A stretch of 64,000 nt of DNA from Eledone cirrhosa (Eukaryota): positions 287,742,001 to 287,806,000 of the forward strand of contig OZ024742.1 of NCBI GenBank assembly GCA_964016885.1, read 5' to 3'. Shown here in pieces: positions 39,301-41,109 of the stretch (position 1 is the stretch's first letter; every line of letters starts with the position of its first letter). The notes under the pieces were generated by a model. It was not told the DNA's origin, did not search any database, and worked only from the letters and a program-made list of their open reading frames with translations. The position numbers and the translations under genes were made by a program.

Positions 39301-40451
39301 TAAAAATCTCCACATTTTGCTTCATTTCTCCCCGTTTGGGTTTTAGAGGTTGGCAGGTCTGTGATGAGTCATTTCTTGTGATTGAGAGGAGATTCGGGTG
39401 TTCTTCTCTCACATAATTTTTCAATATGGTGCTACAGTGATCATACACATGATGTCCGGCTCTTTACAGATTTTTCTTCACATTCATTATGCTCTCCACA
39501 TTTTTCCATATTTCTTTATTCGTTCATTTCAGATGAAGGACTCCAGTCCAAAAGAATACAAACATTTCTATTCTATTTTAGTCTCTTCAAGCGTTAAACT
39601 CATACTATTCTAACTGTATTTTGTATCCTGTATTTGCTGTATTTTCTATTGACTTTTCATTAAATAATCCACACTTACGCAGATATGATCTTAATTCGAT
39701 TTTTGGAATTCAAGTTCGGAATATCACCCAGATTATACTGGATACTTTTTCATTGACTTTTCCAATCTCTTTGTCTCTGTCTCTCTTTACATTTGCTCTC
39801 ACTCTCTCAAACACATTAACTGTGAGTGTATGTGTGTATATATATATATATATATATATATATATATATATATATATATATATATATATATAGAGAGAGA
39901 GAGAGAGAGAGAGAGAGAGAGAGAGAGAGAGAGAGAGAGAGAGATGTGAAATCTGATTTTACATATCTCTATACCTACTCTGCATTTCCCCATACATTCA
40001 GTACTCCCATGATTAATGGTCTCTCCGGTCTCAGCACCGCAGACTCTCTCTCTCTCTCTCTCTCTCTCTCTATATATATATATATATATATATATATATA
40101 TATATATATATATATATATATATATATATATATATATATATATATATATATATATATATAAACAAATAACGAAACGAAATTAAATTTCGTTTCGTTTGTA
40201 ACTCACTTTTGTATGACTGACGCTTAAACAATTAAGTTAAAGATGTACATCCATATATGTATACTGAAATACTAGTATGTATATGAATACACACACGTAT
40301 ACATATGTAGATGTACCAAGTTTTTTCACTGGTCACTTTACTGTGAGTGGCCAGCTATTCTGTATGTAAACACACAGACAAACCGGTTTTTAGAGTCATA
40401 CTGGTTTTTGATGATACACCTTTCCTCTATTCTCCAGAAAGCCAGACAAGG

Positions 40452-40496
40452 AATATTGAACTAGTTTCGTTGTTGTTACAACTCATCAGCAATATT
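40452..40496 (-). ncRNA. Mirror copy of the minimal hammerhead ribozyme
   Basis: Exact reverse complement of 40802-40846. Confidence 0.8.
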
Positions 40497-40801
40497 TACC
40501 TATCTTCCGGCCTCTCTAGAGAATCGTAAAAGCACATATCGTTATATGCTTTTTCTATGAAAATTAGTAGTGGGCAGACTAATTTGCATAGAGTGTGAGT
40601 AAGTACCGGTTCAACGGAGACGATAAAAACAAATAACGAAACGAAATTTAATTTCGTTTCGTTATTTGTTTTTATCGTCTCCGTTGAACCGGTACTTACT
40701 CACACTCTATGCAAATTAGTCTGCCCACTACTAATTTTCATAGAAAAAGCATATAACGATATGTGCTTTTACGATTCTCTAGAGAGGCCGGAAGATAGGT
40801 A

Positions 40802-40846
40802 AATATTGCTGATGAGTTGTAACAACAACGAAACTAGTTCAATATT
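40802..40846 (+). ncRNA. Minimal type-I hammerhead ribozyme with canonical core (GUU site at 40839)
   Basis: aatattg CTGATGA gttg-taacaa-caac GAAAC TA GTT caatatt; perfect stems I and II; palindromic AACTAGTT in place of stem III. Confidence 0.8.
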
Positions 40847-41109
40847 CCTTGTCTGGCTTTCTGGAGAATAGAGGAAAGGTGTATCCTCAAAAACCAGTAT
40901 GACTCTAAAAACCGGTTTGTCTGTGTGTTTACATACAGAATAGCTGGCCACTCACAGTAAAGTGACCAGTGAAAAAACTTGGTACATCTACATATGTATA
41001 TGTGTGTGTATTCATATACATACTAGTATTTCAGTATACATATATGGATGTACATCTTTAACTTAATTGTTTATATATATATATATATATATATATATAT
41101 ATATATATA

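Follow-up and report, generated by a model that had tools for sequence, protein, structure and literature searches.

The locus studied here lies in a window of 64,000 nt (the whole stretch of DNA that was analysed) on contig OZ024742.1 of Eledone cirrhosa, and consists of an almost perfect palindrome with a hammerhead ribozyme motif in each arm. This raises the question of what kind of element it is, and of how a copy came to lie beside its own inverted sequence.

The palindrome and its repeat family

The two 424-nt arms (40225-40648 and 40650-41073) pair around a single base, 40649, with two mismatches (40412/40886 and 40297/41001), in agreement with the sequence-only reading of this DNA, which had counted about two in 424 bp. 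The palindrome is flanked on both sides by (TA)n, within which a target-site duplication was unreadable. The left arm has a 65-nt extension, 40160-40224, that is missing from the right arm. A 41-nt hairpin repeat is present at 40156-40196 and again, at a spacing of 467 nt, at 40623-40663, confirming that the hairpin recurs at the centre of the palindrome. The centre base, 40649, is T, and the equivalent base of the left-end hairpin (40182) is A. The palindrome is a young member of an abundant, non-coding family of repeats that carry a hammerhead ribozyme; that the insertion is young had been suggested from its sequence, and this was supported.

Table 1. Features of the palindromic insertion and its surroundings, in window coordinates.
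Feature	Position	Strand	Remarks
Long arm (B arm)	40160..40648	-	One full 467-nt period + 22 nt; outer end is the family's fixed end B
Inverted 5'-truncated arm (A arm)	40649..41073	+	Takes in the hairpin loop base; outer end is fixed end A
One-sided extension between ends A and B (PLE-type tail)	40160..40224	-	65 nt; terminal hairpin inside; palindrome pairing stops at 40225/41073
Terminal hairpin	40168..40196		14-nt inverted arms, one central base (A on + strand, 40182)
Central hairpin, junction of the arms	40635..40663		14-nt self-complementary stem; central base T at 40649
Hammerhead, type I	40798..40848	+	Core CUGAUGA 40809-40815; 5-bp stem II; 2-bp stem III with palindromic ACUAGU; predicted cleavage after 40839 (GUU)
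Hammerhead, mirror copy in long arm	40450..40500	-	Core at 40489; predicted cleavage at 40459
(TA)n target, left	40071..40159
(TA)n target, right	41074..41113
Octamer-like motif within small inverted repeat	40709..40716	+	Mirror copy 40582-40589; may be a promoter element (candidate)

The repeat unit (numbered U46-U512) has a GC content of 35%. In a natural array of units, the longest ATG-initiated ORF is 19 aa on the plus strand and 62 aa on the minus strand, so the earlier statement that there is no meaningful ORF stands, as does that of one hammerhead per unit, found on both strands (cores at 40809, plus, and 40489, minus). The monomer is strongly self-paired, with a folding z-score of -9.7 relative to shuffles. 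An Rfam scan of the window at the gathering threshold did not detect the hammerhead. Among 20 variants from the main family and a sister family, 92.2% of the cells of the named structure were paired, the core was invariant, and stems I and II covaried. The hammerhead covariation was 0.343, compared to 0.137 for shuffled and at most 0.124 for slid alignments, values that reflect few independent events and a structure taken from the window sequence itself. Two-sided changes occurred at six hammerhead pairs, a count not beyond that in shuffles (117/500). One stem II pair was always U-A or A-U, and mismatched in none, among the 100 genome matches listed. With both families pooled, the cleavage triplet was GUU in 168, GUC in 109, GUA in 12 and GUG in 2 of 291 cases; GUU is a weak cleavage site. 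The 2-bp stem III and its palindrome suggest a hammerhead that presumably folds as a dimer.

Across the 3.0 Gb assembly, a 31-nt hammerhead pattern gave at least 7,806 exact matches, and its reversed control none. The matches are both dispersed and arranged in arrays, with a spacing of 466-468 nt and runs of up to 31 units. The tandem 467-nt arrays anticipated by the sequence-only reading were thus found, and its description of a periodic, non-coding, retrozyme-like unit was correct. None of the copies examined ran on into a coding element of its own, as that reading had also expected, and no LTR structure was seen in about 120 insertions. The median difference between units from 20 loci was 4.3% (range 0.4-12.8%). 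A pattern for the junction between end B (see below) and (TA)n had 2,453 exact genome matches (control, 0). The corresponding end-A pattern gave a raw count of 4,442 (control, 25), which includes redundant matches and members of another family. A 497-nt contig from X4, one of four sequencing runs compared, wraps round a 466-nt unit, which is expected equally from tandem DNA and from a circle, the kind of run not being on record.

The family is an animal non-LTR retrozyme, a group defined by Cervera and de la Pena (2020, PMC7229834). Like other members it has tandem, low-GC, non-coding units, each with one type I hammerhead, in thousands of copies, a self-paired monomer, and Penelope-like elements (PLEs) in the same genome. 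At 467 nt, the unit is just above the 150-450 bp given in PMC7229834 and within the 51-972 bp of bioRxiv 10.64898/2026.07.22.740005.

A sister retrozyme family, approximately 70% identical, has a period of about 483-511 nt and shares the hammerhead layout and the octamer-like motif, which is kept 12/12 between the two families (window 40709-40716). The motif is octamer-like and may be comparable with the newt satellite 2 promoter, of snRNA type; no literature support for an octamer-type promoter of that satellite was found. The sister family has a GUA triplet and ends in (TA)n (L105:8288-10000, L089, L112:2380-2955, L143 and L274). At L334, a stub of a sister-family end may be joined to a main-family arm.

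Outer ends and inner junctions

Insertions were mapped in three samples of 65 loci (including the window), 39 loci and 20 regions, which contained 49, 23 and 13 two-armed insertions, respectively. (In the first sample, the duplicates L164 and L191 were left out, one arm of L005, split by an insertion that came later, was joined by hand, L024 supplied the left end of L051, and L045 was read by eye.) The outer ends fall at two sites in the unit, end A at U436-448 and end B at U505-54 (approximately U512-516), offset by 65-70 nt. Among the 85 two-armed insertions, 76 were A+B, one was A+A, none was B+B, and eight had one other end, two of these at the edge of the retrieved sequence. The tails pointed outward in all of them (tails-in, 0/85). 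Because most loci had been chosen by an end pattern, the 24 loci chosen by similarity or hammerhead are the fair subset; these comprised 17 A+B, no A+A, no B+B, one B with another end, and six single-armed insertions, three of which had a short stub of the other end. Outer A or B ends adjoined a TA run in 135 of 137 cases, in a partly selected sample. The window copy is a standard A+B insertion with the tail on its left arm. At L278, L281 and L325, about 30-45 nt of interrupted TA flank is directly duplicated on either side, consistent with long target-site duplications.

Fixed ends, an inverted truncated arm, a one-sided tail and a (TA)n target are the signature of PLEs, whose insertions were described as having an inverted copy, a 30-40-bp tail and a (TA)n bias (PMC8557442). 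As far as the accessible text of PMC8557442, PMC3846280 and PMC11167929 goes, the retrozyme resembles insertions of EN-bearing PLEs in its tails-out inverted arm, tail at one end, two fixed ends and (TA)n, as well as in its partial tandems and the hammerhead inside the repeat. Unlike these PLEs, it has no ORF, both arms are pure 467-nt tandems, and the hammerhead is canonical rather than minimal. The tail, at 65-70 nt, is longer than the published 30-40 nt and falls within the range that the PLEs of this genome show (40 to about 100 nt).

The sequence-only reading had further proposed that the cDNA primed itself on the hairpin and copied itself back. In a fuller version, close to the self-priming hypothesis for PLEs (PMC3846280), there is one primer, the cDNA folds back on the hairpin, and the endonuclease trims the second arm at end A. 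Joints at or beside the hairpin in the window and at L064, L197 and L279, and at other small palindromes in L181, L304 and L308, are in keeping with this. Arm ends fell in the hairpin in 14/96 cases in one sample (6.6 expected, P = 0.006) and in 3/48, counted by hand, in another (P = 0.65), or 17/144 for both (P = 0.02), an enrichment of at most about twofold. This makes the hairpin a weak junction hot spot; the idea that it is an obligatory junction was rejected, the inner junctions being scattered. In the first sample, the 5' ends of the arms were at least 15 nt apart in 45/49 junctions, so the tie between fold-back points and the hairpin largely disappeared; the overlap of the arms at the junction was -16 to +12 nt in 46/49. 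Moreover, each arm had at least 12 nt missing from the other in 7/49, 1/23 and 1/13 loci of the three samples, and in these 9/85 insertions neither arm can therefore have been copied from the other. At L279, a stub of about 30 nt stands opposite a 424-nt arm. The window copy itself argues in the same direction: the loop base in sense orientation was T in 205/205 hairpins, and the cDNA of the long arm is the plus strand, so a cDNA that had turned on itself would have left A at 40649, where T is observed, and an additional A-to-T change would be needed exactly at the loop base. The reverse order, with the short arm made first, fails too, because the short arm lacks the tail. Annealing of two cDNAs through the 14-nt stem explains the centre without extra changes. 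Fold-back alone also gives no reason for the right arm to stop at fixed end A, nor does it account for insertions composed of two different RNAs (see below). Self-priming was thus not borne out: fold-back is already contradicted as a general rule, and we consider its one-primer version, with trimming, to be very unlikely.

Perfect palindromes are also a familiar artefact of long reads. That the palindrome was created by a fold-back in assembly or in a read is nevertheless so improbable as to be negligible: each arm has a private change relative to other copies and the outer ends are the standard family ends A and B, which rules out an assembly fold-back. The end B/(TA)n junction was also seen as loose ends of 12 contigs from run X1, which may be the window's own source.

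At L330 (670-734), about 65 nt of unrelated, GC-rich sequence is caught between two arms that both end at U227.

Penelope-like elements and a proposed route of insertion

The genome contains 10,595 GIY-YIG candidates. Neptune-type families have the CxxxxCxxC linker and many open 784-aa RT-endonuclease frames, and Hydra-type families have RW, DKT and CxCx5C marks (as listed in PMC8557442). These autonomous PLEs have the same (TA)n target and A/B layout as the retrozyme, with tails of 40 nt (L111-type Neptune), about 65 nt (L096-type Neptune) and about 95-100 nt (Hydra types). Hydra-type PLEs are very abundant and young, with open frames of about 740-900 aa (L050:5218-8990, L266, L267 and L273-L276); two protein searches returned 46,687 and 47,144 candidates. 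In several copies of a young Neptune-type element (L367:833-3969, L368:765-4058), the 784-aa frame is overlapped by an upstream frame, which suggests programmed frameshifting.

The unit itself has no RT and GIY-YIG ORF and is not an autonomous PLE. Of about 150 PLE loci from a handful of families (GIY-YIG, Hydra-type and intact Neptune), taken from searches that scored 150 of 10,595-47,144 candidates, none held an autonomous element whose terminal repeats were homologous to the unit, and all of the 100 listed matches to a broad end-A pattern were retrozyme units. A short AT-rich likeness between retrozyme end A and a Hydra-type end was reached in 3/500 shuffles; this likeness is weak and selected, since it was found with a pattern built from the retrozyme end.

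Three of approximately 120 insertions are hybrids. In the first (L176/L277), a retrozyme B arm is followed by 39 nt of inverted unit and a truncated L111-type Neptune that ends at its own end A. In L282, the B arm faces three units that continue directly into the last 249 nt of an L111-type Neptune, 99.6% identical to the copy at L369 and stopping at the Neptune end B, which makes the insertion B+B. In L291, opposite the B arm lie a 143-nt RTE-type LINE fragment and a Hydra-type copy, truncated and ending at its own end A. The A+B rule is thus followed by two of the three. The inner joint is free of TA in all three, and no retrozyme arm persists past the PLE end. Read from their sequence, the hybrids appear to tie the unit to the PLE machinery, with no single family named; it is possible that they arose as nested insertions followed by deletion. 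The partner PLE is most likely of Neptune type, at slightly better than even odds, the alternatives being Hydra-type or several clades. Five further loci were set aside as hybrids: L192 is an inverted copy of a neighbouring element, L335 is more likely a nested insertion, L047 has about 190 nt of an older Neptune-type ORF and no PLE end was seen there, and L053 and L200 are ambiguous.

Fixed double ends with an inverted arm are typical of PLEs, so the retrozyme was likely inserted by a PLE enzyme priming both DNA strands. Specifically, we propose, with a probability of roughly 0.78, that it is inserted in trans by a PLE RT/GIY-YIG endonuclease. The enzyme would nick both strands of the (TA)n tract and begin two cDNAs on the RNA, one from site B and one from site A, which lies 65-70 nt upstream of B, the two sites probably being used asymmetrically, one per target strand. 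The hammerhead would cut multimeric transcripts into monomers for circularisation, and each cDNA would extend along the monomer, itself likely a circle, for anything from 18 nt to about 14 kb. The 3' ends of the cDNAs would then join by microhomology or end-joining. In the window, the cDNAs may have met in the hairpin, whose stem offers 14 complementary bases to both, giving an exact palindrome. The hammerhead probably does not set the insertion ends, A lying 234 nt and B about 300 nt downstream of the cut site. The observations behind this proposal are the tandem period, the two fixed ends, one per side, the tails-out orientation, the (TA)n target, the variable and non-nested junctions, and the PLE hybrids. 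In vitro, a PLE protein was found to nick AT-rich DNA and to cut and extend its two strands, with synthesis beginning at two internal positions on the RNA that delimit the tail; the protein is predicted to be a dimer, and insertion is independent of hammerhead cleavage (PMC11167929). Against the proposal count the lack of a PLE with a homologous terminal repeat among the approximately 150 loci; the hybrids, which are few, involve two clades, include the B+B insertion L282 and could have formed by nested insertion and deletion; and the tail, which is 40 nt in the Neptune family of the hybrids. The prevalence of the weak GUU triplet also counts against it. So does the cleavage in vitro of only 1/9 frog retrozyme dimers (bioRxiv 10.64898/2026.07.22.740005).

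The sequence-only reading had assumed a circular or tandem template, which is supported in that general form. At L062, with each arm limited to 4.5 kb, the 17 units compared across the two arms were identical, and L189 has seven identical units, compared to the median of 4.3% between loci; in older loci, units of one arm differ as much as units of opposite arms do, and most of the changes are private. An array is therefore inserted as a whole and derives from a single sequence variant, which is the outcome expected if a monomer is copied by rolling circle. In an alternative that differs from our proposal in the template and nothing else, a PLE primes doubly on a multimeric, linear transcript from an array already in the genome; no circle is involved, and the hammerhead is a passenger or acts later. 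We hold this alternative possible, at well under even odds. It would account better for the variants common to non-adjacent units of L167 and L051, which count against one circle and fit a multimeric template or later duplication, and identical units would equally be expected from a source array that is young and homogeneous. The frequent GUU triplet also fits a linear template. So does the finding that the anole PLE inserts in vitro without a need for hammerhead cleavage (PMC11167929). The identical units of L062 and L189, the many units that either arm may reach, the self-pairing of the monomer, and the circles documented for coral, mussel and axolotl retrozymes (PMC7229834) favour the circle.

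Nearby RTE-type LINEs with long ORFs are abundant, and an RTE piece lies at the L291 junction, which raises the alternative of mobilisation by a LINE through L1-like twin priming. In L1 twin priming, two target strands prime two cDNAs, and joining by microhomology yields a 5' inversion; the second priming site is variable and internal. In the retrozyme, by contrast, neither start site varies, and the two arms may each be many units long. Poly(A) and a LINE-like 3' repeat are absent, and the two invariant outer ends and (TA)n target are the pattern of PLEs in the same genome. Amplification of a satellite at the DNA level fares no better, since unequal crossing-over does not produce dispersed insertions with inverted arms. 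Taken together, these routes are improbable.

Mobilisation of retrozymes by PLEs is already in print. PLEs were named a strong candidate by Cervera and de la Pena (2020, PMC7229834), and Li, Clavereau and Pollet (2026, bioRxiv 10.64898/2026.07.22.740005) backed the idea with co-occurrence and pLTR homology, which, with shared ribozymes, make up the published case in the two papers. In their accessible text, neither describes fixed double ends, inverted arms, a (TA)n target or hybrids. Conversely, pLTR homology was not found here among the approximately 150 PLE loci, and the present unit is known from DNA sequence rather than from circles or cleavage. Our literature search, thin in its coverage of subscription journals, Repbase and supplements, turned up no published retrozyme family that has PLE-type double ends or forms retrozyme-PLE hybrids, so insertion-level evidence may be new only in that restricted sense. 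Non-autonomous Chlamys PLEs, such as MRC1 of Chlamydomonas, likewise form multicopy head-to-tail insertions through PLE machinery; unlike the retrozyme, they have 3' ends similar to those of an autonomous partner and, in the accessible text, belong to a group without canonical hammerheads (PMC8557442).

Two open questions meet in this family, namely which enzyme moves animal retrozymes, and how the inverted ends and one-sided tail of PLEs originate. Both self-priming, proposed for inverted PLE junctions (PMC3846280), and endonuclease resolution have been put forward for the latter. With some 2,500 or more insertions of a short, recently active repeat, thousands of natural junctions can be read, and this record, with ends used one per side and fold-back copying ruled out for a subset, is direct, testable support for PLE mobilisation and two-site twin priming. 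The young PLE families with open frames are named as test partners for the 467-nt RNA, and an assay exists for the anole PLE. More speculatively, and with clearly less confidence than in the proposal above, a ribozyme circle may sit in a dimeric PLE RT-endonuclease whose two active sites start 65-70 nt apart and roll round it, with no homology to the helper and with more than one PLE clade (Neptune, Hydra) serving; the hybrids would then be fossils of an enzyme holding two RNAs. If true, this would provide direct genomic evidence for the retrozyme mover, and the inverted ends and tails of PLEs would be settled in favour of fixed two-site twin priming.

Other features of the window

Small hammerhead-like palindromic insertions at 15258-15330, 21630-21800 and 28600-28960, the last of which is a full inverted repeat, are probably stubs of other PLE families. 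A further hammerhead-like motif on the minus strand (37140-37215) is present in a single copy in the window. The sole match of the Rfam scan of the window was tRNA-like and barely above threshold (3101-3170, minus strand), perhaps the head of a SINE. On the plus strand, 18496-19449 contains a 317-aa open frame that resembles a host exon and includes a PQDLS motif, which we take to be of the CtBP-binding type.
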